IMG/VR virus record: IMGVR_UViG_3300050821_011268
Coordinates: 1-46,236 of that record
Source: a virus
Reading direction: 5' to 3' (one strand)
Length of the DNA stretch: 46,236 bases
In this document: positions 14,812-46,236 of the stretch, one piece after another
Layout: every line of letters begins with the position of its first letter
Position numbering within the stretch: the first letter of the stretch is position 1
Translations under genes and position numbers: made by a program
The notes under the pieces: model-generated
Told to the model about the DNA's origin: nothing
The model's database searches: none
Seen by the model: only the letters and a program-made list of their open reading frames with translations

Positions 14812-14828
14812 AAATGGTCAAAAAATCA

Positions 14829-17347: not shown

Positions 17348-17513
17348 ACAGCTTTTATTGACGGTAAAAGTGACAGCGAAAGAGCTAGAAGAGATCAAGG
17401 CCAAAGCCCAGAAGTTCACGGCAGGCAACGTCTCCGCATGGGTAAAATATTCAGCCATTGAACTGGACCCAAAGCCCAAAGACATGCAAGTATCGAGAAT
17501 CATTAAGAAATAA
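17337..17513 (+). CDS. 58-aa ribbon-helix-helix-like protein, missed by the ORF track
   Basis: KQLLLTVKVTAKELEEIKAKAQKFTAGNVSAWVKYSAIE fits the RHH / MobC-like pattern (beta strand, then two helices). It lies immediately upstream of terS. Confidence 0.4.
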   Translation: MKSKQLLLTVKVTAKELEEIKAKAQKFTAGNVSAWVKYSAIELDPKPKDMQVSRIIKK

Positions 17514-17554
17514 AACTGGTAGATTTTGCCGGGTAAGTTTTATAGCTTTGAGCC

Positions 17555-18076
17555 ATGGCTCTCACTCCCAAGCAACAACGGTTCATCGCTGAATACCTCA
17601 TCGACAAAAATGCAACACGAGCCGCCAAGGCTGCCGGATACTCTAAAAAGACTTCCGCTAAGATAGGTTTTGAAAACCTCCAAAAACCAGAAATTAAGAG
17701 CGAAATTGATAAAGGTTTGGCTAAACAATTAGCCGCTACTCGCGCTCGTGGAGAACGAAAAGAACTCACGAGAGAGCGTTGGCTTGAAGAAGTGAGGCTT
17801 CTCGCTTTTTCCAATATGGACAATTTCGCCACCGTAAAAAATGGTAGCGTATTTGCCACTAATACTAAGAATCGGCCTAAACCAATGGGCCGCATGATCA
17901 AAAAATTGAGTGAGACTAAAAACGGAATTGGTTTAGAACTCCATTCAAAGCAAGCGGCGCTCGAACTTTTAGGCAAGCATTATGGTTGGGTGAAAGACAA
18001 ATTGGAGCACTCTGGTGTTGATGGGAAGTCGTTAGATCTCACAGTGACCTATGTCTCCCCTCCAGAGAAAAAATGA
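17555..18076 (+). CDS. terS: Terminase small subunit (Terminase_2 / P27-like)
   Basis: LTPKQQRFIAEYLIDKNATRAAKAAGYSKKTSAKIGFENLQKPEI is the classic N-terminal HTH of this family. 4-nt overlap with terL. Confidence 0.85.
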   Translation: MALTPKQQRFIAEYLIDKNATRAAKAAGYSKKTSAKIGFENLQKPEIKSEIDKGLAKQLAATRARGERKELTRERWLEEVRLLAFSNMDNFATVKNGSVFATNTKNRPKPMGRMIKKLSETKNGIGLELHSKQAALELLGKHYGWVKDKLEHSGVDGKSLDLTVTYVSPPEKK

Positions 18077-26326: not shown

Positions 26327-26758
26327 TTGTTCGCGTTTCCAGTGGTCGCCGATTTTAAAGCATATTTCGTTAGGGATTTTCCCTACGGCACCGATGTGAA
26401 CGCGAACGTTCTCGATCAAGACATTGCGAACGCCCAAACAGAGGCGCAAGTGTCGATCAACCAAGCATTATTTCCTGATCAAAACACTTTTAATTTAGGT
26501 TTCAATTTGTTCACCGCGCACACGCTCGTGGTGAATCTCAGAGCGTCCTCACAGGGAATTTCTGGCCAATTCGCGTGGCTTCAAAGCGGGCATTCAGTGG
26601 GGAACGTTTCTGAAGCCTTCGCGATTCCTGAACGCGTTCAAGCGAGTCCCATGTACGCGTATCTCACCAAAACAAATTATGGTGCGAAATATTTAAATCT
26701 GATTTTTCCAAATCTCATTGGTGTGGTATCAACCGCCCATGGGAGGACCAATGCTTAA
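26327..26758 (+). CDS. DUF4054-like head-tail connector protein
   Basis: FKAYFVRDFPYG ... FTAHTLV ... VGNVSEAF ... LTKTNYGAKYL. TTG start after GGAGGAGGG. Confidence 0.6.
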   Translation: MFAFPVVADFKAYFVRDFPYGTDVNANVLDQDIANAQTEAQVSINQALFPDQNTFNLGFNLFTAHTLVVNLRASSQGISGQFAWLQSGHSVGNVSEAFAIPERVQASPMYAYLTKTNYGAKYLNLIFPNLIGVVSTAHGRTNA

Positions 26759-27269
26759 TATGAAAGGTTTAGACGATCTTCTCAAGGCCATAAAGAGCCC
26801 ACCAATTGTCCGCGTGGGAATTCTCGGTGGTAAAAATCAGCGTTCCGAAAAGCAACATGCGCATGGGCCGCAAAAGACATTGTCCATGGGCTCACAGTAT
26901 GCACTTCCCACCATTGGGCCATCGAATGCCGAGATCGGGCTTAAGCACGAGTATGGCTCGGCGAAAGAAGGCTTACCAATCCGGTCATTCTTGAAAGAAC
27001 CAATTACGGACAATCTCCAGAAATATCTAGATGTTGCTGGCGCATTCTCACCCGGCGCGGTCAAACGGATCATTCAAGCCCGTTCCCTTTCGCTCTTTAT
27101 GAAAAAAGTCGGAATAATCGCTGAGACGATTGTTCAAGACGCTTTCCAAACGGGCGGCTTCGGGAAATGGAAACCCTCGAATATGAAATACAAAAAAGTT
27201 CAACAGACTTTGGTGGAAACGCAACAGCTGCGAAATTCTATCACGTCAGATGTTAAGGAGACCGCCTAA
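26751..27269 (+). CDS. Head-tail joining protein (HK97 gp10-like)
   Basis: ATG 26751 after GGAGG. NAEIGLKHEYGS ... LPIRSFLKEP resembles the gp10-family motif. Confidence 0.5.
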   Translation: MLNMKGLDDLLKAIKSPPIVRVGILGGKNQRSEKQHAHGPQKTLSMGSQYALPTIGPSNAEIGLKHEYGSAKEGLPIRSFLKEPITDNLQKYLDVAGAFSPGAVKRIIQARSLSLFMKKVGIIAETIVQDAFQTGGFGKWKPSNMKYKKVQQTLVETQQLRNSITSDVKETA

Positions 27270-27628
27270 TGAGATTCATAATTTTTCTTTTTGTTTTTAT
27301 ATGTTCGCAAGCTTTTGCGACAGTCACCTTGAATCAAGGTCCAAATAACGTATCAAGTCGAGTGGTGTACAGCTCCACTCCGGTTACGACTGCAACACCT
27401 TTGACATTGTTTACTTCCTCTAGATCAGGTACTCGCGTCACAATTTTTGATTCTAGCGGTCAGACCATGCAGCTTATTGTCACTTCAGGTGGCGGCCAAG
27501 TTGACGTGTTGATAATAAATCCCGGTGGTGGAGACTTCAGTCTCACTATCCCTCAGAATGCTGTCGTGAAGCTACAAGCACTCTCGGCCACCGCAACAGC
27601 CGGTGAAAGCGATATAAATTTCTACTAA
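27269..27628 (+). CDS. Small beta-rich protein with an N-terminal signal-peptide-like segment
   Basis: MRFIIFLFVFICSQAFA-TV has a basic n-region, a hydrophobic core and an AxA-like site. TAATG overlap upstream. Confidence 0.55.
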   Translation: MRFIIFLFVFICSQAFATVTLNQGPNNVSSRVVYSSTPVTTATPLTLFTSSRSGTRVTIFDSSGQTMQLIVTSGGGQVDVLIINPGGGDFSLTIPQNAVVKLQALSATATAGESDINFY

Positions 27629-27638
27629 GGAGAGCAAT

Positions 27639-28268
27639 GTGAAAGCACTGATTTTATTATTTTTGACATTGCCTCTTCTGGTCTTTGCAGGCCCTCCAAC
27701 TTCTGTTACGTGGGGTGTTGATGGTAGTGGACATCCTTGCAATTTTAGTTTGGTGTCTAATACTTGCATTTCTTCTGGTGGCGGATCAGTGACAAGCGTC
27801 GGATTAGCCGATGGCTCATCTATTCCCATTTACAGCATCAGTAATAGTCCGGTCACTTCTTCGGGGAATTTGACATTTAGCCTTTTGAGCCAGATCCAAG
27901 GAACCGTACTCGCAGGGCCGACTAGTGGCGCTTCAGCACAACCGACATTTCGTAGACTTATTTCGAGTGACTTACCACCACCACCAAATGCGCATGTAGC
28001 CGTTTTCACCACGGGCACCTATACTTTTGTCACCGGTACCGATCAATATGTGTTCTCGAATTCCAATGGTGCGACTTCTGTCACACTACCTGACATCTCA
28101 TCGATTGATGGAGTAGTGGCCTATTTCAAAAATCTAAATACGGGGGTCATGACGATAAATCCGTTTAGCGGAGTACAGTTTATCGACAATAATTCAGCAT
28201 TCGCGTTGAATGCACAATACCAGTCTATTCAGATAGTTTCACAAGGAGGAAATTGGTGGGTCTTCTAA
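27639..28268 (+). CDS. Fibre-like protein with an N-terminal signal-peptide-like segment
   Basis: GTG start after AAGGAGAG, then KALILLFLTLPLLVFA-GP. The motif SNSPVTSSGNLTFSL ... VLAGPTSGASAQPTFRRLISSDLP is common in phage tail fibres. Confidence 0.6.
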   Translation: MKALILLFLTLPLLVFAGPPTSVTWGVDGSGHPCNFSLVSNTCISSGGGSVTSVGLADGSSIPIYSISNSPVTSSGNLTFSLLSQIQGTVLAGPTSGASAQPTFRRLISSDLPPPPNAHVAVFTTGTYTFVTGTDQYVFSNSNGATSVTLPDISSIDGVVAYFKNLNTGVMTINPFSGVQFIDNNSAFALNAQYQSIQIVSQGGNWWVF

Positions 28269-29686
28269 AATATTTTTTACTGCTGACGTCGGTTTTCGCG
28301 ATTACCGCGAATGCCGCTTATTTTCCAACCACTACTGCGGTTCAATCCATCCCTGCGAATCTTAAACTTCAGGCATGGGCTTTTGATGGCGCAGGCAATG
28401 CAATTACGAGTTCCGGTGGTGCCCTAAGTTGCTCATCGGCGCAATCGGGTTCGTGGTCTATTGGAATCAACAATTTCCCAGCCACCCAACCGATCAGCGC
28501 TGTATCTTTGCCCTTACCCAGTGGGGCTGCAACCTCAGCGGGGCTTACCACGATCAATACCACTTTGGGTTCACCTATGCAGAACAGTGGGGGAAGTGTC
28601 CAGGCAAATGCTGGCACTAACCTAAACACTTCCGCTTTGGCGCTTGAATCCGGTGGGCATTTAGCTTCACTTGATTCTCATTTGCCTGCACAAGGCCAAG
28701 CGCTCGCAGCAGCGTCTCTTCCTGTAGTATTAACAGCAGCTCAGATAACTACTCTCACTCCGCTTTCGTCCATTAGCGTTTCAAATTTTCCGGCTACTCA
28801 ACCGATCAGCGCCGCATCTTTACCACTTCCTAGTGGTGCGGCAACGAGCGCATTGCAATCGACGATCAATACCACGTTAGGTTCTCCCATGCAAAATAGC
28901 GGGGGAAGTGTTACTGCAAATGCAGGTACGAATTTAAACACTTCACTTTTAGCTCTTGATACTTCCGTGAATGGACTTTTGCTCGCGCAAGGCTCGGCCA
29001 CCTCAACTCAAAAAGGAACGTTGATGATGGGTGCCGTCACTACGGCAGCACCAAGTTATACGACCGCCCAAACGAGTCCTTTTTCTCTTACGCTCGCAGG
29101 CAATGTGAGGGTTGACGGGTCCAGTGTTACTCAACCGATCAGCGCCGCATCTTTGCCACTTCCCACTGGTGCGGCCACTTCGGCCAACCAAACCAATGGT
29201 TCTGAAAAAGCACAAATTGTTGATGGATCGGGAAATGTCGTAGGTCCTGTCACAATTCTCAGCGCGGTTAATTACATGCCCGTTGTTATGGCGTCTACCG
29301 CTACACCTGGTTCCGCAGCTGTAGCCCGGTCTATGCAAGTAGCGGGGTCAGATGGGACGAATGCCCAAACTCTTAAGACAGATACTTCGGGACGGATTAT
29401 AAACACGCCGCAAAATACGTATCATCATCTGACAGGTGCCGCGACTACGACCATCAAATCCGGTGCAGGTTATTTGCACAATTTTTGCTATAACACTCAA
29501 GGTGTGGCGACAGTCGCCACCATTTATGACAACACTGCGGGAAGCGGAACGGTGATCGCCATTATAACAGCTGGTGCCGGTGCTTCTTCCCAAGTTTTTT
29601 GTCAACAGTTCGATGTAGCCTTTGCAACAGGTTTGACCATTACAACTACTGTCGCCGGAACTGACGCGACTGTTTCTTACCAATAG
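28253..29686 (+). CDS. Repeat-containing virion-module protein with an N-terminal signal-peptide-like segment
   Basis: LLKYFLLLTSVFAITANA-AY. Three copies of TQPISA(A/V)SLPLP(S/T)GAATS. The start is TTG 28253 or GTG 28256 (5 nt after GGAGGA). Confidence 0.6.
   Translation: MVGLLKYFLLLTSVFAITANAAYFPTTTAVQSIPANLKLQAWAFDGAGNAITSSGGALSCSSAQSGSWSIGINNFPATQPISAVSLPLPSGAATSAGLTTINTTLGSPMQNSGGSVQANAGTNLNTSALALESGGHLASLDSHLPAQGQALAAASLPVVLTAAQITTLTPLSSISVSNFPATQPISAASLPLPSGAATSALQSTINTTLGSPMQNSGGSVTANAGTNLNTSLLALDTSVNGLLLAQGSATSTQKGTLMMGAVTTAAPSYTTAQTSPFSLTLAGNVRVDGSSVTQPISAASLPLPTGAATSANQTNGSEKAQIVDGSGNVVGPVTILSAVNYMPVVMASTATPGSAAVARSMQVAGSDGTNAQTLKTDTSGRIINTPQNTYHHLTGAATTTIKSGAGYLHNFCYNTQGVATVATIYDNTAGSGTVIAIITAGAGASSQVFCQQFDVAFATGLTITTTVAGTDATVSYQ
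28472..29191 (+). repeat. Intragenic repeats: two 60-aa units 312 nt apart plus a third partial unit
   Basis: Units start at 28472 and 28784 (NFPATQPISA.SLPLPSGAATSA...TINTTLGSPMQNSGGSV.ANAGTNLNTS). A partial unit lies at 29126-29191. Confidence 0.85.
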
Positions 29687-29696
29687 GAGAAAGAAT

Positions 29697-29960
29697 ATGA
29701 AAATCAATAATATAACAGCAGCAGATATCACAATTCCAGGTTTAGTTTCAGTGGTTCCAGCGAGTGGGGTTTACTCAGTTGATCCGGATAATGATGATCT
29801 TGACCAGATGTCTAAAAGTGAATTGTTTCGTGCTCTCATAAACATGGGTTCATTGACCCTTCTTTTGGGTGATATTTATACCCCGTCTACTCCCACAGCT
29901 ATGGAAGAATATCTGGATAAAATCGCAAATGGTATATTTTCCCCAATGGCGGAGTCGTAA
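29697..29960 (+). CDS. Hypothetical protein
   Basis: 87-aa ORF with SD AGGAGAAAG. Confidence 0.5.
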   Translation: MKINNITAADITIPGLVSVVPASGVYSVDPDNDDLDQMSKSELFRALINMGSLTLLLGDIYTPSTPTAMEEYLDKIANGIFSPMAES

Positions 29961-29963
29961 AAT

Positions 29964-30410
29964 ATGGCTATTAAACATTATAGATCTACAGGAACCACGA
30001 CCATACTAAATGGGAAATGCACTCTATCGGTCACCATTCCCGGAACGTTTTCCAATCTTACTCCGGGAAGTCCGGCATGGTCGGGGCGAATTATAAAAAG
30101 CCTCGAATGCATGTTCGGCAATGGAGTGACTGGTGATTATGTAACCAATGTGATCGTCAGTGACCCTAATGGCGTCATACCATTGGGTGAACAAGCTTTG
30201 TTTCCGAATTATCCGATTGTGGGCACTCGCATGGACACGGCATTGCCATCAGGGAATCAAGGATTGAATCTGATTCCGGGAGTGGCGCAACAACTAGTTG
30301 AACAGCCTGTTCCCATTGCTAGTGGATTGGTTTTGTCTGCTGATTTCTATAACGCAAGTGCAAGAAGTGATACGCTGGCCCTCAATATTTATTGGGATGA
30401 TCTGACCTAA
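29964..30410 (+). CDS. Hypothetical beta-rich protein
   Basis: 148-aa ORF with a TAATG overlap downstream. Confidence 0.5.
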   Translation: MAIKHYRSTGTTTILNGKCTLSVTIPGTFSNLTPGSPAWSGRIIKSLECMFGNGVTGDYVTNVIVSDPNGVIPLGEQALFPNYPIVGTRMDTALPSGNQGLNLIPGVAQQLVEQPVPIASGLVLSADFYNASARSDTLALNIYWDDLT

Positions 30411-30796
30411 TGGTTATTAGAAATGGTGCAAACACTCTGCTCAATCAAAACTCCGGGACACTCCCGGAGATGAGCGGAGCTTTGCTAAATATGTTCCAAC
30501 AAATGGTGTTTTCAACCATTGCGACATCGAACATAAATTTCCAAGCAGTTGAGGTGCTCACACCGATTTCTTTTCAAGGAGTGTGGCAGCCTTTCACCGC
30601 TGCTCAACTAAAAATCTTGCCCGAAGGCTTAAGGACTTGGTCCTGGTTCATGTGCCACGCGGACCCGTGTCTTCAGCTTCAGACCAAAGAAACGATTGAT
30701 TTTCTAGGTGTGAGATACAGAGTAATGAGCCGCACGGACTATTCGCTCTACGGGTATATGCAATATTCGCTTGTCGAAAGCTGGGTGCCGCTGTGA
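30410..30796 (+). CDS. Neck / tail-completion-like protein
   Basis: 128-aa ORF. LRTWSWFMCHAD ... FLGVRYRVMSRTDYSLYGYMQYSLVE resembles head-tail joining proteins. Call is based on position and pattern only. Confidence 0.45.
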   Translation: MVIRNGANTLLNQNSGTLPEMSGALLNMFQQMVFSTIATSNINFQAVEVLTPISFQGVWQPFTAAQLKILPEGLRTWSWFMCHADPCLQLQTKETIDFLGVRYRVMSRTDYSLYGYMQYSLVESWVPL

Positions 30797-35198: not shown

Positions 35199-36128
35199 AT
35201 GCCGGGACAAGTAAGTTTACCACAGCCAGTGCCGATCATCCGGGGAGTGGGACAGCTCACGAATCCCTTTGGGATTACACAAGCGATTCCTAATCTCGCC
35301 AATTCTGCGGCCACTCTTGTCTCGCTACTTCATCCTAATGCGGTCATTGGTGTGCAGCCTCAAGATAATGTTGCGGGCGTTGGTCTCACTTTATCTTTCA
35401 TAGATAAACCGATTCTGTTTCATTATGAAGGTGAGAACAGTTCCACTCTTCAAACGGATATCACTGATCACTTCGTCGAAGACAATACCGCTATTCAAGA
35501 TCAAATGGCTTTGCGTCCTATTGAGATTTCCACACATGGTTTCATCGGTGAATTGAATGATATCCCGGTGCTCCCTCAGTTGGCCATTGCTAAAGCCGTT
35601 GCGAGTAGTCTCAATAGCGCAGTTGGCGCATTTGTGCCGGGACTCTCTACAACTGCCCTCATCACCTATAACCAAGCAGCTCAAGCTGCGGCGATAGCAA
35701 GCACTGTTTATCAACAGGCCCTTTCAGCAATGGCTTCAATAAATGGCTCGCAGCAAACGGACATAAACGGAATCATTTTCCAAAGTCCAGCGTTGCAAAA
35801 TCTTCAACAGCAATTTTATCAACGATTTCTAACATATTATGTGAACCGAACGCTCTTTACCGTTCAAACTCCGTGGGCCGTGTATCAGAATATGGCGATA
35901 AAATCTTTAAGAGCTATTCAAGATGACAGCACTCGCATGGTAACAGATTTCGAAGTGACGTTTAAGCAAATGCGGTTTGCCTCAACCAGGACAAGCGGGA
36001 CGTCGAGCAGCATTCTTCAAGGACGGGCTTCAGCCCAACAAGCACCGCAAGTGATCGTTGGTGAGGCCACTACTGGCCCGACTATACCTTTCAGTACGAC
36101 CACTCCACCATTGGCGGCGACCGCATGA
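35199..36128 (+). CDS. Tail/baseplate protein in the position of Mu gp43 (DNA-circulation-like)
   Basis: 309-aa ORF directly after the tape measure. The assignment is by synteny with Mu-like tail modules only. Confidence 0.4.
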   Translation: MPGQVSLPQPVPIIRGVGQLTNPFGITQAIPNLANSAATLVSLLHPNAVIGVQPQDNVAGVGLTLSFIDKPILFHYEGENSSTLQTDITDHFVEDNTAIQDQMALRPIEISTHGFIGELNDIPVLPQLAIAKAVASSLNSAVGAFVPGLSTTALITYNQAAQAAAIASTVYQQALSAMASINGSQQTDINGIIFQSPALQNLQQQFYQRFLTYYVNRTLFTVQTPWAVYQNMAIKSLRAIQDDSTRMVTDFEVTFKQMRFASTRTSGTSSSILQGRASAQQAPQVIVGEATTGPTIPFSTTTPPLAATA

Positions 36129-36472
36129 ACATAATCCAACAGGTCACCTCAGACCCACTTCAAACGCGTTCAGTTAGAATTCCGAATAACAATCTTTTCA
36201 CTTTCACTATGTATTTCATGCCGATGCAACAGAGTTGGTTCATCACGAATCTCACTTATCTGACTTTCGTACTCAATGGTCTCAGAATCTCAAATAGCCC
36301 CAATATACTTCATCAGTGGAGAAACATCCTTCCCTTTGGGCTTGCGTGTTTCAGTACGAATGATCGGGAGCCGCAATTGGTGGACGATTTTTCAAATGGT
36401 CTTTCAAACCTGTACTTGCTCTCACAGGCGGATTGCCAAGCATATGAGGAGTTTTTGACTAGTGGGTCTTAA
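36125..36472 (+). CDS. Hypothetical baseplate-module protein
   Basis: 115-aa ORF with an ATGA overlap upstream. Confidence 0.45.
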   Translation: MNIIQQVTSDPLQTRSVRIPNNNLFTFTMYFMPMQQSWFITNLTYLTFVLNGLRISNSPNILHQWRNILPFGLACFSTNDREPQLVDDFSNGLSNLYLLSQADCQAYEEFLTSGS

Positions 36473-37400
36473 ATTTGGACGCGTATATTCTCTTACCGTT
36501 TCGACCATCGACAACACACAAAGTGTGACAATAGCTCTCCCTTTTACTATGGAATTCGACATAAAGAGAAACGATTTATCGTCACTTAATCAAGGCTCTA
36601 TTCGTCTTTACAATCTATCTTTACATAATCGAGCGTTCATTAGACAGGACGAATATACTCCTTTCTTAGCTAAACGTATTGTGCTTAGAGCCGGATATAG
36701 CGGGTTTCCTAATCCCAATGTGGCGCCTATTCCTGGATCGAGTCAGACTATTCTATTAAATGGCTTAATCAATCACGCTTGGAGCATCAGAGAAGGAAAC
36801 AATTTCATAACCAATATAGAATTTTTCGATTTGGGCCATGCGGCTACCTCAGATAAAAATACCATCGTTTTTAATCCAAAAACGGCGCCGGGTTCTTTTG
36901 TGAAAGGCATGACGAAAAAACAAATCATTACCCAAATGGTGAATTATTTAAGACCTGTAGGAATCACACTTGGAACGATTGGAAATTTTACCAATACTTA
37001 TCCGAAGGCGCGCGTCTTTGCAGGTTCCGTCCTTCAAGGGCTTAGCGAGATCTCCGGTGGTCAATTTTATATCGACAATGGTGTGGCTAATTGTTTGGCC
37101 GACAACGAAGTGGTGGAAGGCGATCCCCTTTTGATTGATTCGAGCACAGGGCTTTTGGGAACCCCGATCAAAGATCTCCTTATGATGCGTTTCCAATTAT
37201 TATTTGAACCAAAAATTCTCATGAGTAGCCTTGTCAATTTACAAAGTACAACGGCGTCCCAATTCAACGGTGTAGGAAAAGTTCTATCACTTCACCATAA
37301 GGGAACTATTTCGGCTGCTGTCTGCGGCGACGCGACGACGGATGTTGGGATTCTCATAGGTGCGGAAGCGGCATTTAATCAAGTGCCCAGGACCGGATGA
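36462..37400 (+). CDS. Baseplate hub-like protein (Mu gp44 / P position)
   Basis: GTG start. LTVSTIDN ... FDIKRNDLSSLNQGSIRLYNLSL ... RIVLRAGY resembles hub proteins. Synteny supports the call. Confidence 0.5.
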   Translation: MGLKFGRVYSLTVSTIDNTQSVTIALPFTMEFDIKRNDLSSLNQGSIRLYNLSLHNRAFIRQDEYTPFLAKRIVLRAGYSGFPNPNVAPIPGSSQTILLNGLINHAWSIREGNNFITNIEFFDLGHAATSDKNTIVFNPKTAPGSFVKGMTKKQIITQMVNYLRPVGITLGTIGNFTNTYPKARVFAGSVLQGLSEISGGQFYIDNGVANCLADNEVVEGDPLLIDSSTGLLGTPIKDLLMMRFQLLFEPKILMSSLVNLQSTTASQFNGVGKVLSLHHKGTISAAVCGDATTDVGILIGAEAAFNQVPRTG

Positions 37401-38161
37401 TGGCTGATCAAATTCCAGCACTTATAGCCAAATTTACCAAGACGAGCCAAAATATGCGGGATTTGATGGATCTCGTTAAACGCGAAGTGTTTTTGGAATT
37501 CAATAGTCACCATATCTGCAATGTAGAGAACGTGAATTACGAATTGCAAACCGCTAGCGTCACGATCAACTATCCTAAAACTGTTTATGTATCGGATGTT
37601 CCAGGTGTCTTTTATCCGATTCAGCAGCCTTATCCCATTTTAACTGATGTGCCTTTTCACGTGATCAGCGACGGAAGCGAAGCGAGTCTTACAATGCCGA
37701 TAAAACCGGGCGCCCAAGGTCTTGTTTGTTTCAATGATAGGGATATCGGGAATTGGTTCGCTACTGGCCAGAATCAGCCGGTGGCGAGCACTATGCTCCA
37801 CTCACTTTCAGACGGACTTTTATTTGTCGGTTTTAGGTCATTAAAGAATCCGATTGCCAATTACGATCCGATTCGCGCAGTATTGAGCAATGGTGAAGCT
37901 AGAATTGGCGTCAAAAATCAAGCAGACGATCTTCTCAATGGCTCGGGAAAAGTCCTTATTGCCAATGATACATTCGGCACTCTTGGCCCGAATTTTAAAG
38001 CATTTTTCATGGCGCTTAGTACCTTCGTCACGGCTTGTGAAGCCAGCATTACCGATCCCGTACTCGCTGCTGCGGCCACGGCTTTTGCGGCCACATTTAC
38101 GGTTCCCGTTGCTCCATCAACTCAAGGTTATCCAATTAATATTCCGGGGGTGCTAGAGTGA
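37397..38161 (+). CDS. Baseplate spike / gpV-like protein
   Basis: 254-aa ORF between the hub-like and W-like genes, with ATGA and GTGA overlaps. Confidence 0.45.
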   Translation: MMADQIPALIAKFTKTSQNMRDLMDLVKREVFLEFNSHHICNVENVNYELQTASVTINYPKTVYVSDVPGVFYPIQQPYPILTDVPFHVISDGSEASLTMPIKPGAQGLVCFNDRDIGNWFATGQNQPVASTMLHSLSDGLLFVGFRSLKNPIANYDPIRAVLSNGEARIGVKNQADDLLNGSGKVLIANDTFGTLGPNFKAFFMALSTFVTACEASITDPVLAAAATAFAATFTVPVAPSTQGYPINIPGVLE

Positions 38162-38571
38162 TTGTCAGAGCTTTAGACGCAAATGGTGATTGGCTTTTTG
38201 GTAAAGGCACCAATGATTATAAAGCGGGCACCGATGCCATTAAACAGACTATCGGTACTCGTCTTAATTCGTTTCTTGGGGATTGTTTTTTCGCCGGAGA
38301 GCAAGGTCTTGACTGGTTTAATTATCTGGCCGGTAAAGATCAAGTGTCTCCAGCTTTGGCCGTGGCTTCGACAATTGCCACCACACCAAGTGTTACGGGA
38401 CTCGATAGTTTTAGTCCAAGTCTAGACACTACGAGAACGGCTAGCTATGTTGCGGCCACAACACTGGGTCCGGTGTCAGGTCAATTCAGCATCACACAAG
38501 TAACTGATTTCTTACTCACTGAAAGCAGCGATTTCTTAACGGATGAAGACGGAGGACGGTTAGAAGCATGA
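38158..38571 (+). CDS. Baseplate wedge protein W (gp25 / DUF2634-like)
   Basis: DANGDWLFGKGTNDYKAGTDAIKQTIGTRLNSFLGDCFF resembles gp25/W-like proteins. GTG start in a GTGA overlap. Confidence 0.55.
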   Translation: MIVRALDANGDWLFGKGTNDYKAGTDAIKQTIGTRLNSFLGDCFFAGEQGLDWFNYLAGKDQVSPALAVASTIATTPSVTGLDSFSPSLDTTRTASYVAATTLGPVSGQFSITQVTDFLLTESSDFLTDEDGGRLEA

Positions 38572-41500
38572 AAAAATTAACGCTGTTCATTTTGGCAATC
38601 ACCTCTCTCATCTGCATGGGAGATGTAAAACTCTCCCAACTTCCCGTGGGAGCCGCTGCGGCCACTAACGGGCCGGATTCTTTTCCGTATGTTGACTCGG
38701 TGGACATGATCACGAAGAGAATTTTGCTCTCGGATATTCAAAACATTCCCTCTCTTCAAAGTGCATTCTTGTCACTCGCGCCCACATCTGCGAACTATGT
38801 AATGGCAGGCCCTTTAAGCGGTTCGCCGTCTGTTCCCTCTTTTAGGCTTCTGTCTGGTGCAGATTTGAATGTGGCGCTTACACAAATCGGTGTGAGCCCT
38901 CTCATAAACAATAACCTGCCACTTCAATGGAAAGATAGTGGGGGTACTGCGAGATCTATCTTAAATTTCGACAACACCAATTTGGTCACTCTTCAAAATC
39001 CTTTGGCCGGGTCCAATGCGCAATTATCGCTCACAAACGCTTCGGGCAATGGATATGCACAATTAAATGGCTCAAGTCAGATTACCCTTACCTCAAACGA
39101 AGTGCTCTTCCAAGGCTCGACCGCACCCACATCTTTGGTGTTTCCCGGTTCTTTTGGTACGGTCACTCTTGGTGCTCCCAATTCTTCGATCACCACTTGG
39201 GCCGCATATTGGCCCGTCTCCAATGGGACTTCGGGACAAGTACTCACGACCGATGGCGCCACCCCGGCCAATTGGTATTGGTCGAATTCAAGCACCACTC
39301 CACCTGCTGGCGTGACAGGTGACGTCCAGTTCAATAATGCTGGTGCATTTGGCGCAGATGATTCCAATTTCTTTTGGGACGAAACAGACAAGCGTTTAGG
39401 AATTGGAACGAATGGCCCTCTCACCAATATCCATTCGGCCAGTTCCGGAGCCTCAACAACAGATCACGGGATCACCCAAGAAAATAATTCCGCCAATGCC
39501 ATTGGCGGGGGATTTATCTTGAAAAAATCCAGAGGTACTTTTTCATCTCCTGGAGCCATTTTAGCGAATGACGCCCTTGGAAGAGTTCTTTTCTATGGGT
39601 ATGGTACTGGATATAATGCGACTACTCCAGATGCGGCGATGTTTGCCGCCGCTGCACAGAACTTTTCAGGCACGGCACATGGAACTAATCTTACCTTCAG
39701 CATCACCCCGAACAATTCCATAGTCCGGCAAAGTATTCTTGGCCTAAACAACGATGGTGGAATGGTTCGTTATAGCCCTACGGCTACAACGCAACTCTCT
39801 GAGTACTACACGGCCGGTGGAACTTCTTATTCTATAAATTGGCCTGCATCTCAAGGCACAGGTGCTTTAACCAATGACGGCGCCGGGAATTTGTCGTGGA
39901 TGTCTTCCGCTGCTGCGGGTGCGACTGGTGCGGTCCAATTCAACAATGCGGGCACTTTTGCAGGGGATACCTCCAATTTCTTTTGGGATGATTCCGGATT
40001 CAGACTCGGTATCGGCACCAATGCTGTGACTAGTCCCATTACTATTCAGACGAATTCTTTCCCCAAAGTGATCTCGGCCGGGAATAGTTCCGCCGCAGCT
40101 TATTTGGAGTTTGATTCGACCAATGGCGTTCAGTACGTGGCCGGAGCCGATGGCCCGAATAATCAAGGTTGGGCAGGCACCCAAAGCAACCATCCGTTCA
40201 TTTTCAGAACGAACAACACCGGCCGAATTACCGTGTCTTCGGGTGGGAACATTCAGTTCAACAATTACGGAGAAGGCGTCGCTCAGTTTGATTCAAGCGG
40301 AAATATAACTTCGACCGCACCCGGCACTTCGGGGAATGTCCTCACATCAAACGGCACCACTTGGATAAGCCAAACGCCAACAACGGGAATCACGGCACTC
40401 ACTGGTGACGTTACAGCTTCGGGATCAGGTTCAGTGGCCGCTAGTGTTGTTAAGATTCAAGGTACGCCCGTATCGGCGACCGCGCCCACGACAAGTCAAG
40501 TACTGGCCTATAATGGAACCGCTTGGGCACCGGCAACGGCCAGTTCGGGCACTCCAGGCGGCACCACTGGTGCCATCCAATACAACAATGGCGGAGCCTT
40601 CGCGGGTGATGCCTCTAATCTATTCTGGGACGATGCGGGTGTGAGACTTGGCATTGGGACAAATTCGATCACGAGCCCCGTCACTATCGTGACCGCATCT
40701 TACCCCAAAGTGATCTCGGCTACCAATACCACAGCGGCCACTTATCTAGAATTTGATTCCACAAATGGTGTGCAATTCGTTGCCATGGCGGATGGCCCTA
40801 ATAATCAAGGGTTGATGGGTACGCAAAGCAATCACCAATTTGTGTTTAGAACGAATAACACCGGCCGAATTACGGTCGCGGCTGGTGGGAACATTCAGTT
40901 CAACAATTACGGAGAAGGCGTCGCTCAGTTTGATTCAAGCGGAAATATAACTTCGACCGCACCCGGAACCTCGGGCAATGTACTCACTTCGAGTGGTGGG
41001 GTTTGGGTGAGTGCTCCGGCATCCGGGGGTTCGGGTACGGTCACTCAAGTAAACACGGGCACGGGTATCACGGGTGGCCCTATCACCACTACCGGAACAA
41101 TTTCTCTGGCGGCCATAAATAACAATGATCTTTTGGCCAACACTTCGGGGAGTTCAGCAGCACCCGTTGACACTTCTCTTACTGCGCTTATCGATAGCGC
41201 TATGGGGAATTCACAAGGCGACATTCTTTATCGCGGAGCCAGCACTTGGACGGTTTTATCCCCCGGTACAAGCGGTTTTCTTTTACAGACCCAAGGAACC
41301 GGCGCTAATCCGATTTGGGCGAATGGATCGAGCACCTATGCAACTACTTCTTTAAACAACGTAGCGGCCACTTCGATTGGTGCGAATTTGAATCCGGCGA
41401 CCACCAACACTTATCAAATCGGTAGCAGTAGCTCACAATGGCTCGCAGTTTCGGCATTCAGATATACCACCACGAATAGTCCGGATTCACTATTGATGGG

Positions 41501-42884
41501 AGTACTCACAAGTGTGATCCCCGGAGTGACGGGCGTTGGTATCGCTCAAAATGGTTTACAAGGATTTCCTACGCTCACGCAAGATCCGCTTTATGTGACT
41601 ACCGTTTCTGATTCTACTTCTAATACTGTGGCAACGGCAGATATCGACATCGTGACGGGAAATAAAACTGTAGGCACCGCAAATAGTGGAAGTATCAATA
41701 TCACTGCGGGGACAGCGACAGGAACCCAAGGTTCAATTCGGCTACTCAAAAGTGGTGTACCTTCCGTGTCAGGCCAAGTATGGACGGCATCGGGAACAGA
41801 TGGGACAGGATATTGGCAAACTCCTTCTAGCGGAACCGTCGCTTTGAACAGCATAACGGCCGCAACCGCTACCAACACCATAAACAATCTCAATTTTGCT
41901 CAAGAATGGGATTGGAACACAATCACAACGGCCAATGCGATGAAATTCGCATCTTCCACGATCACGAGTGGTTCTCTTCTTAATCTATCGGCTTCCAGCG
42001 CCTCAAACGTTGGCCCGATCTTGGAAGTGACCAACACTTCGACAACAAGCAATTCCACGGACATCAATGTGGATGCATCGGGATCAAGTGGGACCGGCGT
42101 CAATGTGAGCGCTGTCACATCGGGCAATAGCACAGTGGGTTTCCATTCTCAAAACTCTGCAACAGGGGGAGCAACAGGACTTCAGATTGACAACACCGGC
42201 GCCACTGGTGCGGGTAAAGGCATCGTTGTAAATTTATCATCTAATAACGCAAATGCCGTAGGGCTAAACATTACTTATTCAGGCGCGACGAGTCCTGCTG
42301 ATGGAATTCAAGTAAACCAAAATGCAGGGTATGGACTCGACATTAAAAACCACACCGCAAATGCCGTCGCTCAATCCATTTTTCTCACCAATAACGACAC
42401 TAGTGCTGCGGTTGGAAATGGCGCGGAGATGGTTTTTGGAACGAGTAACGGCAGCCCCAATAAATTGATCGCAGGTGTCGCGGGCGTAGATGAAGACAAC
42501 ACGGCCACCTATGGTGGGGCCGTAGTTCTTTACACCACCAATGGCGGCGGACCTACACCCATCGAACATTTGCGGTTAGATCGTTGGGGACATCTCATCA
42601 GTAAGGGTACACTCCCGACCATAAGTGCTTGTGGAACATCTCCGTCTATAGCGGGCACCGATGTCAATGGTCGAGCGACCGTTGGCACTGGGGGAACGGC
42701 AACGAGTTGCACGGTCACCTTTGCGAATGCCTACACTAATGCTCCGACATGTTCTGGTGGGGACGAAGACTCTACGACTCCGCTTTTGACAGTTTTATCC
42801 GCGACGACCACTGCTCTGACTTTCACCGCTTCAACTCCTTTTGCGGCAGGTGATAAACTCGTCTACCATTGTTTAGGATACTAG
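38568..42884 (+). CDS. Giant tail fibre (1438 aa) with a signal-peptide-like N-terminus and duplicated modules
   Basis: MKKLTLFILAITSLICMG. Fibre motifs include LSGSPSVPSFRLLSGADL, three copies of VQFNN.G.F.GD..NFFWD....LGIGTN, and GTVTQVNTGTGITGGPITTTGTISL. Confidence 0.8.
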   Translation: MKKLTLFILAITSLICMGDVKLSQLPVGAAAATNGPDSFPYVDSVDMITKRILLSDIQNIPSLQSAFLSLAPTSANYVMAGPLSGSPSVPSFRLLSGADLNVALTQIGVSPLINNNLPLQWKDSGGTARSILNFDNTNLVTLQNPLAGSNAQLSLTNASGNGYAQLNGSSQITLTSNEVLFQGSTAPTSLVFPGSFGTVTLGAPNSSITTWAAYWPVSNGTSGQVLTTDGATPANWYWSNSSTTPPAGVTGDVQFNNAGAFGADDSNFFWDETDKRLGIGTNGPLTNIHSASSGASTTDHGITQENNSANAIGGGFILKKSRGTFSSPGAILANDALGRVLFYGYGTGYNATTPDAAMFAAAAQNFSGTAHGTNLTFSITPNNSIVRQSILGLNNDGGMVRYSPTATTQLSEYYTAGGTSYSINWPASQGTGALTNDGAGNLSWMSSAAAGATGAVQFNNAGTFAGDTSNFFWDDSGFRLGIGTNAVTSPITIQTNSFPKVISAGNSSAAAYLEFDSTNGVQYVAGADGPNNQGWAGTQSNHPFIFRTNNTGRITVSSGGNIQFNNYGEGVAQFDSSGNITSTAPGTSGNVLTSNGTTWISQTPTTGITALTGDVTASGSGSVAASVVKIQGTPVSATAPTTSQVLAYNGTAWAPATASSGTPGGTTGAIQYNNGGAFAGDASNLFWDDAGVRLGIGTNSITSPVTIVTASYPKVISATNTTAATYLEFDSTNGVQFVAMADGPNNQGLMGTQSNHQFVFRTNNTGRITVAAGGNIQFNNYGEGVAQFDSSGNITSTAPGTSGNVLTSSGGVWVSAPASGGSGTVTQVNTGTGITGGPITTTGTISLAAINNNDLLANTSGSSAAPVDTSLTALIDSAMGNSQGDILYRGASTWTVLSPGTSGFLLQTQGTGANPIWANGSSTYATTSLNNVAATSIGANLNPATTNTYQIGSSSSQWLAVSAFRYTTTNSPDSLLMGVLTSVIPGVTGVGIAQNGLQGFPTLTQDPLYVTTVSDSTSNTVATADIDIVTGNKTVGTANSGSINITAGTATGTQGSIRLLKSGVPSVSGQVWTASGTDGTGYWQTPSSGTVALNSITAATATNTINNLNFAQEWDWNTITTANAMKFASSTITSGSLLNLSASSASNVGPILEVTNTSTTSNSTDINVDASGSSGTGVNVSAVTSGNSTVGFHSQNSATGGATGLQIDNTGATGAGKGIVVNLSSNNANAVGLNITYSGATSPADGIQVNQNAGYGLDIKNHTANAVAQSIFLTNNDTSAAVGNGAEMVFGTSNGSPNKLIAGVAGVDEDNTATYGGAVVLYTTNGGGPTPIEHLRLDRWGHLISKGTLPTISACGTSPSIAGTDVNGRATVGTGGTATSCTVTFANAYTNAPTCSGGDEDSTTPLLTVLSATTTALTFTASTPFAAGDKLVYHCLGY
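39918..40989 (+). repeat. Two ~430-nt homologous modules spaced exactly 642 nt apart, with an 83-nt identical core
   Basis: Modules at 39918-40347 and 40560-40989. Nt 40242-40324 are identical to 40884-40966. A more diverged third copy starts at 39309. Confidence 0.9.
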
Positions 42885-42894
42885 GGGGGATTTC

Positions 42895-44298
42895 GTGCCG
42901 AATGTTTTAGACGCCACAGGATTGACACTCAAGACCAGCGCCGAGCTGATCGCGTACTTCACAAACGCATATCAGACCATTTATGGGGCAGATGTGAACC
43001 TTGATCAAGACAGTCCTGATGGTCAGATGATGATGATTTTTGTGCAAGCCGTGCTCGATCAACAAGACATCACCATGCAGATTTACAACTCATTTGACCC
43101 GGACAATACTTTTGGTGTGGTGCTCGATCAGCGCATTGCGATCAATGGTATTCAAAGAAAAGGCGGCACTTTTACAGTGACTCCTGAAACCATCGTTGTG
43201 GACCGGGCTCTTTCCCTCATCGGGATTAATGATGATCCGAACAATCCCTACACCGTCCAAGACAGTGCGGGAACTATGTGGCAACTTCAGACTACACAGA
43301 ATTTCGCATCGGCCGGAACTTACATTGCAAGTTTTCAAGCGGCTCTCCCTGGTGCGGTGTTGAGTTTACCCAACACCATCACCATTCCGATTACTCAAGT
43401 CCTTGGTGTAGATTCGGTCAATAATCCCTCGAGTTATTCTGTTCTGGGAATTAATGAGGAGACCGATCCCACAGTCAAAATAAGACGGCAACAATCGACG
43501 GCTTTGGGTTCGCAAGGATTTTTAAGCGGACTTTATGCGGCGTTAAACAATATCAATGGAGTGAGTTTTGCGAAAGTCTATGAGAATGACACTGGAGTCA
43601 CGGATGGGGATGGAGTTCCAAGCCATTCTATTTGGGTTATTATCGCTGGTTCTGCCGCCGCTGTTGATATTGCTAATGCGATCTATTTAAAGCGCAATGC
43701 CGGATGCGGGATGTTTGGGGCTCAATCTTATCTCATCACCCAAGCGGACGGAAGTTTATTCGCGATTCTTTGGGATTTCGTCACACCCGATACGCTCTAT
43801 ATAAAATTCACGGCCACGTCCATTGACGGCATAAACGCGCCCAATTTAGCGGCCATTAGGTCTGGGCTTGTCACAAGTTTCGTGCCTGGAGTGTACCAGA
43901 CGGTGAACATCAGTGCTTTAGCTGCGGCAGTTCAGGCCATTGATTCAAATACCCTAGTCACAAATGCTGGCTTTTCGACTTCGGCCACGGGACCGTTTAC
44001 CACCACTCTCACGCCTTCGGCCAAGAATTTGCAATTTATTGTGACGTCACCAAACATCATAATAATTCCGATCATTGAACTTCCGATAAATCCGACAGTG
44101 GCACATGGTGGAGCAATCCAATTCTCGGCCCTTGGCGGGTATGGTGCATACACCTTCACCTTGCAAGTTAACAACTCCGGTGGCACGTGCTCCACGTCGG
44201 GTGCTTATGTGGCGGGCGGAACTTTCCCGGTCACGGATACGGTGCGCGTAACGGATTCTCAAGGCAACTTCACTGATACGAATGTGAGTGTGACCTGA
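42895..44298 (+). CDS. Baseplate J-like protein with a C-terminal Ig-like domain
   Basis: GTG start after GGGGGGA. The N-terminal LKTSAELIAYFTNAYQTIYGADVNLDQDSPDGQ is Baseplate_J-like. The C-terminus has GGYGAYTFTLQVNN. Confidence 0.7.
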   Translation: MPNVLDATGLTLKTSAELIAYFTNAYQTIYGADVNLDQDSPDGQMMMIFVQAVLDQQDITMQIYNSFDPDNTFGVVLDQRIAINGIQRKGGTFTVTPETIVVDRALSLIGINDDPNNPYTVQDSAGTMWQLQTTQNFASAGTYIASFQAALPGAVLSLPNTITIPITQVLGVDSVNNPSSYSVLGINEETDPTVKIRRQQSTALGSQGFLSGLYAALNNINGVSFAKVYENDTGVTDGDGVPSHSIWVIIAGSAAAVDIANAIYLKRNAGCGMFGAQSYLITQADGSLFAILWDFVTPDTLYIKFTATSIDGINAPNLAAIRSGLVTSFVPGVYQTVNISALAAAVQAIDSNTLVTNAGFSTSATGPFTTTLTPSAKNLQFIVTSPNIIIIPIIELPINPTVAHGGAIQFSALGGYGAYTFTLQVNNSGGTCSTSGAYVAGGTFPVTDTVRVTDSQGNFTDTNVSVT

Positions 44299-44912
44299 TG
44301 ACGACTGAAGAAATCGCGGCTTATTATGCCAACTTATTGATTCTGCAATATAAAGGTAAACCGAATGCCTATGCCTTTGTTTTAGACACGGTTTTGCCGC
44401 TCATCATGGATCAAATGCCAACAACCATCCGCGATGCCTTCGACATGACATCAGCAGTCGGCGTGCAACTTGACGTCTTAGGCAAATACATTGGTGTGAC
44501 GAGATACGGGAACCGAACGAATGGCTCGACCATCACGCTCGACGATACGGACTATAGAAAACTGATCATGATGGTCCTGATCCGGAACAATAACGGAAGC
44601 AGTCTCGCCACTATCCAATCGCAACTCTCCGCAGTTTTTCCAGGGATGATTTTTGTCTCCGATACGACAACGATGTCACTAAATTATTTGCTGATTGAAA
44701 GTCTCGGCACACCCGATCTTTTGGAGATGCTCGTCACTGGAGATTTTTTACCGCGTCCCATGGGAGTCAATACGGCCGTGACCACTGAGCCGTCACATTC
44801 TTTTCCGTTCTTTGGATTCATCACCACTGTTTTCCCTGATCCGACTGTTTCGCCGTTCAACACAAATCAGATTTACAACCTAAATGCACCTTGGTTAGGT
44901 TATAACACTTAA
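44298..44912 (+). CDS. Baseplate wedge protein (DUF2612-like; Mu gp48 / P2 I position)
   Basis: EEIAAYYANLLILQYKGKPNA ... QLDVLGKYIGVTR is a DUF2612-like pattern. ATGA-type overlap with the J gene. Confidence 0.55.
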   Translation: MTTEEIAAYYANLLILQYKGKPNAYAFVLDTVLPLIMDQMPTTIRDAFDMTSAVGVQLDVLGKYIGVTRYGNRTNGSTITLDDTDYRKLIMMVLIRNNNGSSLATIQSQLSAVFPGMIFVSDTTTMSLNYLLIESLGTPDLLEMLVTGDFLPRPMGVNTAVTTEPSHSFPFFGFITTVFPDPTVSPFNTNQIYNLNAPWLGYNT

Positions 44913-44930: not shown

Positions 44931-45605
44931 ATGTCAGGTACGCCACGAAAAAATATGAAGCTCTTCGGCTCAACGCCCGGAGTGAATCAGGTTTCTCAAT
45001 TCGGAAGTAGGTTCAATGGTGCGGTCAATTACACAACCGATGTGGAAGTGATTCAAGGGCTCTCCAATTGGTTAACTGGCTGGTATGAAGCGGTCTTAGG
45101 CGGGAATGCTCCAACGATCCAAGACACAAACGCTGCGTTCATCGTTTTTGCCTATCAACTCTTTTACCTTTTTGAAAAGGGTGTGGCCGAGTGGAACGCG
45201 AACACGACTTATTATGTGGGGAGCTTAGTTAATAGCGGCGGCATTCTTTATGTCTCGATTGCGAATGCGAATTTAGACAACCCGCTCTCTGATCTCGCGC
45301 ATTGGAAAGTGCTCGGTAACGGTATCCGCGTAGTGACGGCCGCAGACACCATGCAGGCCACGGACGATTACATTCGTGGTGCGATCACCGGGCCTGTCAC
45401 CGAATCACTTCTTCAGGTGAGCACTCTCGCCGTGGGGCAAAGACTCAAACTCAAAAACGTTTCAGGCAACGGAAGTGCCTGGACCATCGCAGCTTATGCA
45501 GGCGACAACATCGACGGCCAAAGCTCGATTGTTCTCAATAGCACCAATTCTTTGGAGAGTGTTGACTTGATCGCGGTTGGATCTAATACTTGGGACATCG
45601 TATAG
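44931..45605 (+). CDS. Short tail fibre / receptor-binding protein with a CBM5/12-like aromatic motif
   Basis: EWNANTTYYVGSLVNSGGILYVSIANANLDNPLSDLAHW fits W..T.Y..G..V...G..Y........P......W. SD GTGAGGA. Confidence 0.5.
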   Translation: MSGTPRKNMKLFGSTPGVNQVSQFGSRFNGAVNYTTDVEVIQGLSNWLTGWYEAVLGGNAPTIQDTNAAFIVFAYQLFYLFEKGVAEWNANTTYYVGSLVNSGGILYVSIANANLDNPLSDLAHWKVLGNGIRVVTAADTMQATDDYIRGAITGPVTESLLQVSTLAVGQRLKLKNVSGNGSAWTIAAYAGDNIDGQSSIVLNSTNSLESVDLIAVGSNTWDIV

Positions 45606-45616
45606 GAGATATGATT

Positions 45617-46192
45617 ATGAAATACCTTTTGGGCTTTGCAGCATTTCTTCTCTGTTCTCTAGCCACGGCGAGCTTCTTTGTACCGCCTCACGGAATAACG
45701 CTTCCGATGCACCAGCCAGGCGAAGTGCTTATGTGGGGCGGCTCCAGTTGCCCTACCGGCACCCTCCCCATGAATGGTGGGGGTTATTCGACAAGTGCTC
45801 CCTATGCGGCTCTATACGCGATTCTGGGCTATACCTATGGTGGTAGTGGCGGCACCTTTAATGTGCCCAATACTGGTGGGGTGTTCATCAGGGGATCGGG
45901 TTCCCAGACCATTGGTCCGACCCTTTATTCGGGCACGCGCGGGACCGCTCAGAATGACCATTTTGCGAGCCACATTCATAACGTCTATGGCGGATCGGCC
46001 GGGAGCACTTACACGACCATTGGCAACGTCGCGGCCTATGGAATAGGCGGTTCATCCGGGGGTACCGGCTATCAATACTACACCACCGTTCCGGCAGGTC
46101 CAGGAACGAACGAGCCCTTCATCCAGGCGACAGGTGTTGGGACCGAGACACAGCCCGCAAACATCGTTATGCTTTATTGCATAGTGTACTGA
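45617..46192 (+). CDS. Phage tail-collar (MdpB-like) domain protein with a signal-peptide-like N-terminus; spans the circular junction
   Basis: MKYLLGFAAFLLCSLATA-SF. Collar pattern: MWGGSSCPTGTLPMNGG ... YAALYAILGYTYGG ... FNVPNTGGVFIRG ... HIH ... ETQPANIVMLYCI. ATG 45617 lies 8 nt after AGGAG. Confidence 0.75.
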   Translation: MKYLLGFAAFLLCSLATASFFVPPHGITLPMHQPGEVLMWGGSSCPTGTLPMNGGGYSTSAPYAALYAILGYTYGGSGGTFNVPNTGGVFIRGSGSQTIGPTLYSGTRGTAQNDHFASHIHNVYGGSAGSTYTTIGNVAAYGIGGSSGGTGYQYYTTVPAGPGTNEPFIQATGVGTETQPANIVMLYCIVY

Positions 46193-46236
46193 CCATGGTC
46201 ACTAACGTGGAGTTTCCTCAAGTGGATGCAGGGCTT
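46140..46236. repeat. Terminal direct repeat, copy 2 (identical to 1..97)
   Basis: Base-by-base identity with the first 97 nt of the window. Confidence 0.95.

Follow-up and report, generated by a model that had tools for sequence, protein, structure and literature searches.

In tailed phages, the accepted view is that tail fibres fold in the cytoplasm and are attached there. The gene described here encodes a fibre-like protein of 1438 amino acids (aa) that starts with a predicted signal peptide, and it lies between the baseplate genes W and J of a phage genome, IMG/VR virus record IMGVR_UViG_3300050821_011268 (46,236 nucleotides (nt), positions 1 to 46,236; this whole stretch is called the window). 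The nearest isolate is Bdellovibrio phage phi1422, with a TerL 53% identical to that of the window. phi1422 is a dwarf myovirus of the phiPLPE group (PMC3391216). The structural genes of the window are collinear with those of phi1422 except for two insertions, at 27269-30410 and 38568-42884, the latter being the fibre gene. The window phage is itself a phiPLPE-like dwarf myovirus whose baseplate is of the E217/Pam3 type; an earlier reading of the DNA without database searches (the sequence-only reading) had called the baseplate Mu/P2-like, and this is corrected here, as it is not Mu/P2 proper. In Bdellovibrio bacteriovorus, the MAT fibres (Bd3182, Bd2133, Bd2439) consist of a signal peptide, a conserved N-domain, a long fibre and a mosaic tip. 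Their N-domain is beta-rich and about 130 aa long, and these phage-fibre-like proteins are chromosomally encoded, surface-displayed adhesins (PMC10769870).

The window product begins with MKKLTLFILAITSLICMG, followed directly by DVKLSQLP. A word-indexed protein search with aa 1-152 gave no match, and full HMMER was needed. Residues 1-120 were searched in this way against 1.84 billion representative proteins, and the best 150 of the 597 matches were examined. Among these, at least 47 proteins, each standing for one 50%-identity cluster, align from their own N-terminus. All 47 have the same layout, which is Met-K/R, a hydrophobic stretch, an AxA-like site and then D[VT]KISQLPLGSAA..DSFPYVDS. The leader is 15-25 residues long across the family and ends in AxA/AxG directly before D[VT]KISQLP. 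Statistics were made on 48 members, window included. The n-region has K/R in 48/48 (MKK in the window), and the h-region, taken as the last 12 leader positions, has 3 charged residues in 576 positions. In the window the h-region is LTLFILAITSLI, uncharged and hydrophobic; the mean Kyte-Doolittle value is 2.13. Residue -1 is A in 37/48 and G in 6/48, and residue -3 is A, S, C, V or T in most members; the window has C(-3) and G(-1). Mean pairwise identity is 23% in the leader versus 57% in the following 45 residues. Judged by these sequence patterns, the leader is a real and conserved predicted secretion signal, not a product of chance. A lipoprotein signal, cleaved by signal peptidase II, was rejected, since S-L-I-C16 misses the lipobox [LVI][ASTVI][GAS]C and the Cys is absent or shifted in homologues.

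A hydrophobic helix with a positive N-terminus could also stay uncleaved and serve as a signal-anchor, holding at the inner membrane either the fibre or, by way of it, the nascent baseplate. The c-region C-M-G of the window is less canonical than AxA. This is improbable. A small residue (A or G) at -1 in 43/48 members, mostly with a small -3, stands directly before the conserved motif, and the leader is poorly conserved, as expected of a discarded segment. Moreover, the N-in topology of an anchor would leave the fibre body periplasmic, so that the topological problem remains.

Cysteine counts bear on where these proteins fold. Mature family proteins with any Cys have an even count in 35 of 40 cases and an odd count in 5 (binomial p = 7e-7, although the proteins are related and such p-values overstate independence). 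In the core virion proteins of the same phages the count is even in 114 and odd in 180. A GKCLxTNGxxTxWxxC motif follows the N-domain, and its Cys pair is present in 12 members, absent as a pair in 3 and mixed in 0. The only four Cys of the mature window fibre sit in its last ~100 residues, and all four are kept in P0002, another signal-peptide fibre from a different phage contig. The first Cys pair of the tip is likewise both present or both absent in the tip relatives P0199-P0209. The even counts and the pair covariation fit disulfides formed outside the cytoplasm, in an oxidising compartment. Together, three independent sequence signatures (the parity, the motif pair and the tip Cys) point to a family that would be folded in such a compartment.

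These patterns also bear on the start codon. The sequence-only reading preferred the start at 38568 to Met18 (nt 38619), and the comparison agrees. If translation began at Met18, or if the leader were a non-exporting one read from a T-rich spacer, the product would be an ordinary cytoplasmic fibre. The spacer is indeed T-rich, and a Met18 start would give MGDVKLSQLP, in the register of the leaderless phi1422 gp67 (MGIKISQ). Yet none of the 47 homologues has Met at that position, all keep an in-frame signal-peptide-like leader, and 5 other phages share the ATGA start, each with a coupled gene after W. Because a Met within three residues of the junction occurs only in the window among the 48 members, Met18 is a local peculiarity and not a conserved start. 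There is no Shine-Dalgarno site or other purine-rich stretch before 38619, although most window genes have AGGAG-type sites. A cytoplasmic product would also leave the even Cys counts and the Cys pairs unexplained, and it is highly improbable. Relatives lacking the leader, which the sequence-only reading had named as a refutation, do not turn up within this family, in which at least 47 other clusters have kept it.

The position of the gene was compared in related phages. The open reading frame (ORF) at 38568-42884 and its ATGA overlap with W are present as the sequence-only reading had described, and its view of the gene as an insertion between W and J holds, since W is directly followed by J in phi1422 and in 36 of the 37 IMG/VR loci that a search with the J protein retrieved. 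Where the two genes adjoin, they are 0-16 nt apart (108 nt in a single group); in the window, 10 nt separate the stop of the fibre gene from the start of J. The order of W, a 4-nt overlap, a signal-peptide gene of the fibre family and then J is found in five other phages. The closest relative, L042 (major capsid protein 74% identical), has a fibre of 1402 aa in this place, L044 a pectate-lyase-type tailspike of 950 aa and L045 a fibre of 971 aa. L047 has a mini-protein of 154 aa with two further signal-peptide ORFs, and L040, on a contig binned with a Bdellovibrionales metagenome-assembled genome (MAG), has a mini-protein of 102 aa. The ATGA junction after W is identical in L042, L044, L045 and L006, and L047 has a 4-nt overlap; in L006 an unlike signal-peptide protein of 760 aa stands at the W-J junction. 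In L003, L007, L010 and L043 the homologous gene is in the usual fibre slot after I. All ten contexts read (10/10) place the family genes in a baseplate or fibre slot within tail modules, and 20/20 members checked are on contigs of at most 47 kb and none on a chromosome. The family is therefore phage-borne and not a family of cellular adhesins. Recent foreign origin judged by G+C content was rejected, since the 50.4% of the fibre gene against 47.2% is explained by its Gly/Ala/Thr-rich composition and is uninformative.

Within the late baseplate operon, translation of the fibre gene is coupled to that of W. Promoter-like and terminator-like sites in the window are at or below the counts expected from shuffling, and none flanks the fibre gene. 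The contig ends in an exact repeat (nt 1-97 and 46140-46236), and the window is therefore a complete genome, circularly closed or permuted, of 46,139 bp. In this complete genome no ORF of integrase size is left unexplained. PolA, a primase-helicase, an SNF2 helicase, a single-stranded DNA-binding protein and a nuclease are all encoded by the phage itself; therefore the phage is probably virulent. These data bear on the idea that the gene is cargo, a conversion gene that would give a predatory host an extra MAT-like surface adhesin. In its favour, the layout of signal peptide, N-domain, stalk and variable tip resembles that of MAT fibres (PMC10769870). The stalk modules of the window fibre are also 39-51% identical to S74-terminated fibres with signal peptides, one of them from a Bacteriovoracia MAG. 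However, the gene lacks its own promoter and terminator and forms a coupled part of a late baseplate operon, the genome looks virulent, and the family members checked are all on phage-sized contigs. In a BLASTP comparison with the MAT-like Bacteriovoracia protein P0019, used as a stand-in for the MAT fibres of HD100, the stalk modules align and nothing N-terminal does; the N-domain is thus unrelated to the N-terminal region of P0019. The cargo explanation is quite improbable, and a moron or prophage gene was rejected on the lack of flanking promoter or terminator and of an unexplained integrase-sized ORF.

The N-domain is much more strongly conserved than the body of the protein. Leaderless fibres start almost at once with its motif. 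phi1422 gp67 (annotated 'tail fiber protein', YP_007007146) is one of them, and over 227 residues it has 62% identity with the orthologue in L007, which occupies the same slot and does have a leader. The bodies of family members, of trimeric-fibre or tailspike type, are unrelated to one another, and one of them is the tailspike of L044. Conservation at the predicted mature N-terminus, shared with leaderless fibres, is the pattern expected of a virion-attachment domain. An AlphaFold2 (AF2) model of aa 1-125 with 40 homologues has a leader helix, a beta-hairpin and a helix, with a predicted local distance difference test (pLDDT) score of 67.5; a Foldseek search of this model against the Protein Data Bank (PDB) gave no match below E = 1. 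Most HMMER matches that are not N-terminal fall on query residues ~60-105, which include a fibre repeat unit at aa 76-105. This unit also has a weak match to ORF 27639-28268.

Further along the protein, two stalk modules of ~151 aa are 79% identical in amino acids and 75.5% in nucleotides, and the motif QFNNxGxFxGDxxNxFWDxxxxRLGIGT occurs three times. The two modules are a tandem duplication that has lengthened the fibre. The relatives of the tip, P0199-P0209, mostly have signal peptides. In the AF2 model the terminal ~100 aa are all-beta, and pLDDT reaches 58-74 there only; this model of aa 1047-1438, built from the single sequence, had a pLDDT of 45.6 and was of no use. Structure prediction was on the whole uninformative. 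The 1438-aa protein had no match in Pfam, PHROGs or NCBIfam, hence none to S74 either, none by tblastn against 50,697 GenBank phages and none by phmmer against PDB sequences. The family also has mini-members of 100-170 aa that consist of leader, N-domain and a short tail (L040 9679-9987; L047 6001-6465; P0123, P0157, P0185). The L040 mini-protein has a foldon-like motif (WRWVKLYLGTETLIFPVW) at its end, similar to the C-terminus (…GYIQMTINGSTRYIPFW) of a longer fibre with a signal peptide on the same contig.

The gene upstream gives a further hint. W of the window has a C-terminal tail of ~20 residues (FLLTESSDFLTDEDGGRLEA) with the motif [FY]L(L/T)T(E/Q)xGxxIxT(E/Q)xG, in which LxTExG is repeated. 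This motif is found in 6/6 phages with a signal-peptide DVKISQL gene after W, and among ~28 distinct loci with adjacent W and J only in L003 and L011 (Fisher p = 2e-5, a value that takes no account of phylogeny). L003 carries the fibre further downstream, and the contig of L011 ends too early to tell. In other relatives W is 115-125 aa long and lacks the tail motif. The tail may be a docking peptide for the fibre. As a by-product of the insertion or of a ribosome-binding site for the fibre gene it is unlikely, since highly divergent phages retain the motif, as do the insertion-free L003 and L011.

Our preferred reading, at a probability of about 45%, is that the product is an exported, disulfide-bonded virion fibre that would be joined to the baseplate only at lysis. 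The chain would enter the Sec pathway via its leader, signal peptidase I would cleave between G18 and D19 to leave a mature N-terminus where leaderless fibres begin, and the mature fibre would then fold and gain disulfides in the periplasm. This first part is likely. The N-domain would dock on the baseplate, possibly on the C-terminal tail of W, only once the action of holin and endolysin has merged cytoplasm and periplasm; if the host is Bdellovibrio-like, the two would mix within the closed bdelloplast. The benefit might be a disulfide-stabilised receptor-binding fibre without the need of a dedicated chaperone. A role in the virion is supported by the baseplate or fibre slot, the coupling to W, the lack of an own promoter, the conservation of the N-domain, its motif being shared with leaderless fibres, the tailspike among the family members and the co-occurrence of the W tail. 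Fibres of contractile tails are cytoplasmic and have no export signal, a feature that the window fibre with its conserved signal peptide lacks. More tentatively, a whole phage lineage may send its receptor-binding fibres through Sec, with disulfides formed in the periplasm and fitting after lysis, perhaps with the bdelloplast as the chamber, and such a lineage would be a plausible source of the MAT adhesins.

Several points, besides the two statistical cautions given above, weigh against this reading. Signal peptides were called by a home-made heuristic plus alignment and not by SignalP. The host is probably a Bdellovibrio-like predator, judged from phi1422 and one MAG bin only. A literature search of partial coverage found no tailed phage with a conserved signal peptide on its fibre or with fibre addition after lysis, and we know of no tailed phage that attaches an exported fibre at that stage. 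Assembly of this kind should also be inefficient because of dilution when the cell lyses. The more distantly related N-domain orthologue phi1422 gp67 lacks a leader, and the leader is thus an addition to a type of fibre that can function in its absence. Three more facts count both against a virion fibre and for a protein that is exported and never joins the virion. Every clade phage has a leaderless short fibre after I, which may be the sole true fibre. P0002 combines this tip with a signal peptide but has no N-domain, and it lies outside any tail module, next to TerS among signal-peptide ORFs, so an exported, unattached form evidently can be useful. Virions of the phiPLPE group are reported to have short fibres of ~10 nm (PMC3391216), and 1438 residues would give a long one.

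Such a free protein, a receptor-binding or depolymerase protein made late, is the main alternative. It might hide or degrade the phage receptor of the infected cell, or its nascent surface polysaccharide, and so spare progeny from loss on debris, or it might act on the envelope or bdelloplast to help release. The signal-peptide and disulfide signatures fit it too. The literature search of partial coverage gave no precedent for it either. These phages have many accessory proteins with signal peptides, including secreted papain-like proteases, and one family member has a beta-helix of the depolymerase type. On the other hand, a free protein has no need for an N-domain of 57% identity at its mature N-terminus that is common to leaderless virion fibres. 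The mini-proteins of 100-170 aa, with little beyond leader and N-domain, cannot bind receptors. The ATGA coupling to W and the co-occurrence of the W tail would need a separate explanation, and a Sec signal alone reaches the periplasm and not the cell surface. We regard a free exported protein as possible but rather unlikely, and the virion fibre fitted at lysis as the better account.

Other genes of the clade also encode signal-like N-termini. The four others named in the sequence-only reading, at 27269, 27639, 28253 and 45617, are real, each with a good Shine-Dalgarno site. That reading had seen in them a genome-wide property rather than chance. Chance is indeed not the explanation, since in 39 related loci the home-made heuristic finds such N-termini in 2/399 core structural homologues versus 36/202 non-core ORFs of at least 100 aa. 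The genome-wide part does not stand, as these N-termini belong to accessory, distal-tail and inserted genes and the pattern is clade-wide. The first insertion is a cassette of five ORFs (27269-30410), in which ORFs of 87 and 148 aa follow the three with signal peptides. Its flanks, a head-completion gene (26718-27269) and a tail-completion gene (30410-30796), are adjacent in phi1422, L042 and every other related locus covering the junction, and the cassette is absent there. The 119- and 477-aa products of the cassette have a weak likeness to a 439-aa signal-peptide protein of L002 (7512-8831), and the 119-aa product has a sub-threshold match to a type IX secretion system sorting domain. L002 (IMGVR_UViG_3300050821_004856) has four signal-peptide ORFs of 123, 796 (P0002), 439 and 375 aa around its small-terminase gene, at 4060-9955 and outside any tail module. 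In phi1422 (locus L028), gp67 (12136-13194) is a leaderless KISQ-type fibre; the neighbouring gp68 (13196-15040, 614 aa) and also gp75 (17065-17577, 170 aa) have signal-peptide-like N-termini. Papain-like proteases (Peptidase_C1, QGxCGSCW) are encoded in L016 (14684-15475), L022 (7868-8920) and L044 (18454-18853). In L016 and L022 the protease has a signal peptide, and its gene is close to the region for tail fibres and lysis. The proteases may be secreted egress factors.

The features of the window are collected in Table 1. Orthologues of the window W match PF10934 Sheath_initiator, and the Collar ORF extends into the terminal 97-nt repeat. Elsewhere in the window, the portal ORF (19343-21568) encodes 741 aa. 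The phi1422 portal (478 aa) aligns only to its residues 40-475, leaving a C-terminal extension of ~265 residues beyond the alignable part. On the minus strand, an ORF of 79 aa (5176-5415) that stands among the replication genes has an N-terminus (MKFTLCVTLSFLSISC) like that of a lipoprotein. Another of 132 aa on the plus strand (1205-1603) has an internal hydrophobic segment and adjoins a DUF5675 protein (304-720). These two ORFs may be lysis or exclusion genes. A scan of the window for host clues found no tRNAs. In L043, which also carries the family member P0165, a peptide deformylase gene (13679-14119) stands among the replication genes.

Table 1. Features of the fibre gene, its neighbourhood and the upstream cassette (positions in the window)
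Feature	Position	Strand	Remarks
Cassette of three signal-peptide ORFs (119, 209, 477 aa)	27269..29686	+	n-h-c leaders; AFA/VFA/ANA sites; AGGAG ribosome-binding sites
Dit-like protein	35199-36128		Baseplate neighbour
Plug	36125-36472		Baseplate neighbour
Hub	36462-37400		Baseplate neighbour
Spike	37397-38161		Baseplate neighbour
W / gp25-like sheath initiator, 137 aa	38158..38571	+	PHROG 120 baseplate wedge; 45% identical to phi1422 gp64
C-terminal extension of W, aa 117-137	38506..38568	+	Possible fibre docking tail
Fibre-like gene, 1438 aa	38568..42884	+	ATG start; between W and J
ATGA overlap of fibre start and W stop	38568..38571	+	Fibre ATG over TGA of W
Signal peptide, aa 1-18	38568..38621	+	Predicted cleavage between G18 and D19; n-h-c layout; family alignment
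Conserved N-domain, aa 19-75 (DVKLSQLP...DSFPYVDS...TKR...D..N.P)	38622..38792	+	57% identity; rest of protein variable
VxAGPxSG..PxFRxL-type fibre repeat unit, aa 76-105	38793..38882	+	HMMER matches
Diverged third stalk copy, aa ~215-282	39210-39413	+	Shared motif
Stalk module copies, aa 451-601 / 665-815	39918-40370 / 40560-41012	+	Tandem duplication
Tip region, aa 1087-1438	41826..42881	+	71% identical to P0002 C-terminus
Terminal ~100-aa beta domain (C1355, C1381, C1395, C1435)	42585..42881	+	AF2 and alignment
J-like baseplate wedge	42895..44298	+	PHROG 6; 44% identical to phi1422 gp65
I-like wedge, DUF2612 / Phage_Wedge1	44298..44912	+	Domain match and phi1422 comparison
Short fibre without leader, conserved	44931..45605	+	PHROG tail-fibre families; follows I in almost every relative
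Tail-collar-domain protein with signal peptide (MKYLLGFAAFLLCSLATA before SFF)	45617..46192	+	PF07484 Collar; AGGAG 9 nt before ATG

A conserved family of fibres and tailspikes with signal peptides breaks the cytoplasmic rule, and it implies either an assembly step in a second compartment or the routine export of free receptor-binding proteins. Either way out would be new biology and is directly testable. The cultured phi1422 offers an experimental handle, with its leaderless gp67 and the signal-peptide-bearing neighbours gp68 and gp75. Through this family, phage fibres are connected with the MAT adhesins, phage-like proteins with signal peptides by which Bdellovibrio recognises prey. For annotation, the leaders of such fibres should not be trimmed as mis-called starts.

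Among known systems, the window fibre is closest in its N-domain to the myovirus fibres of the phi1422 gp67 type. Both have the N-motif K-I-S-Q-x...D-S-[FL]-P-x-V-D...T-K-R, a place in a baseplate or fibre operon, and a conserved N-end before a variable body and tip with repetitive stalk modules rich in Gly/Ser/Thr/Asn. In gp67, P0010, P0028, P0032, P0033 and P0090 the motif is at residues 3-8 and there is no leader, whereas the window family has a leader of the cleavable type, of the length given above. The family also differs in its even, covarying Cys, and the window gene in its place between W and J and not after I. The MAT fibres share with the window fibre a signal peptide directly before a conserved N-domain, a long fibre and a swappable tip. 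Unlike theirs, the N-domain of the window is a phage-fibre motif of ~55 aa, and the gene is in the baseplate operon of a virulent phage. The window fibre also lacks the S74 domain of one MAT subgroup, which is found in P0003, P0012 and P0019. T5 Llp, T1/phi80 Cor and lambda Lom and Bor are exported proteins from the tail-fibre region that act on the envelope or receptor, and several of them have their own promoters or are expressed from the prophage. Unlike the window fibre, they are small (lipoproteins or proteins of the outer membrane), are not built as fibres and lack a domain for attachment to the virion. The pIII of filamentous phages binds the receptor as part of the virion, and it has a cleavable Sec signal peptide and disulfides formed in the periplasm. 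Filamentous phages are membrane-extruded single-stranded DNA phages that assemble at the inner membrane, whereas tailed phages, from which pIII is not known, are built in the cytoplasm. Llp, Cor, Lom and pIII are functional analogies only.

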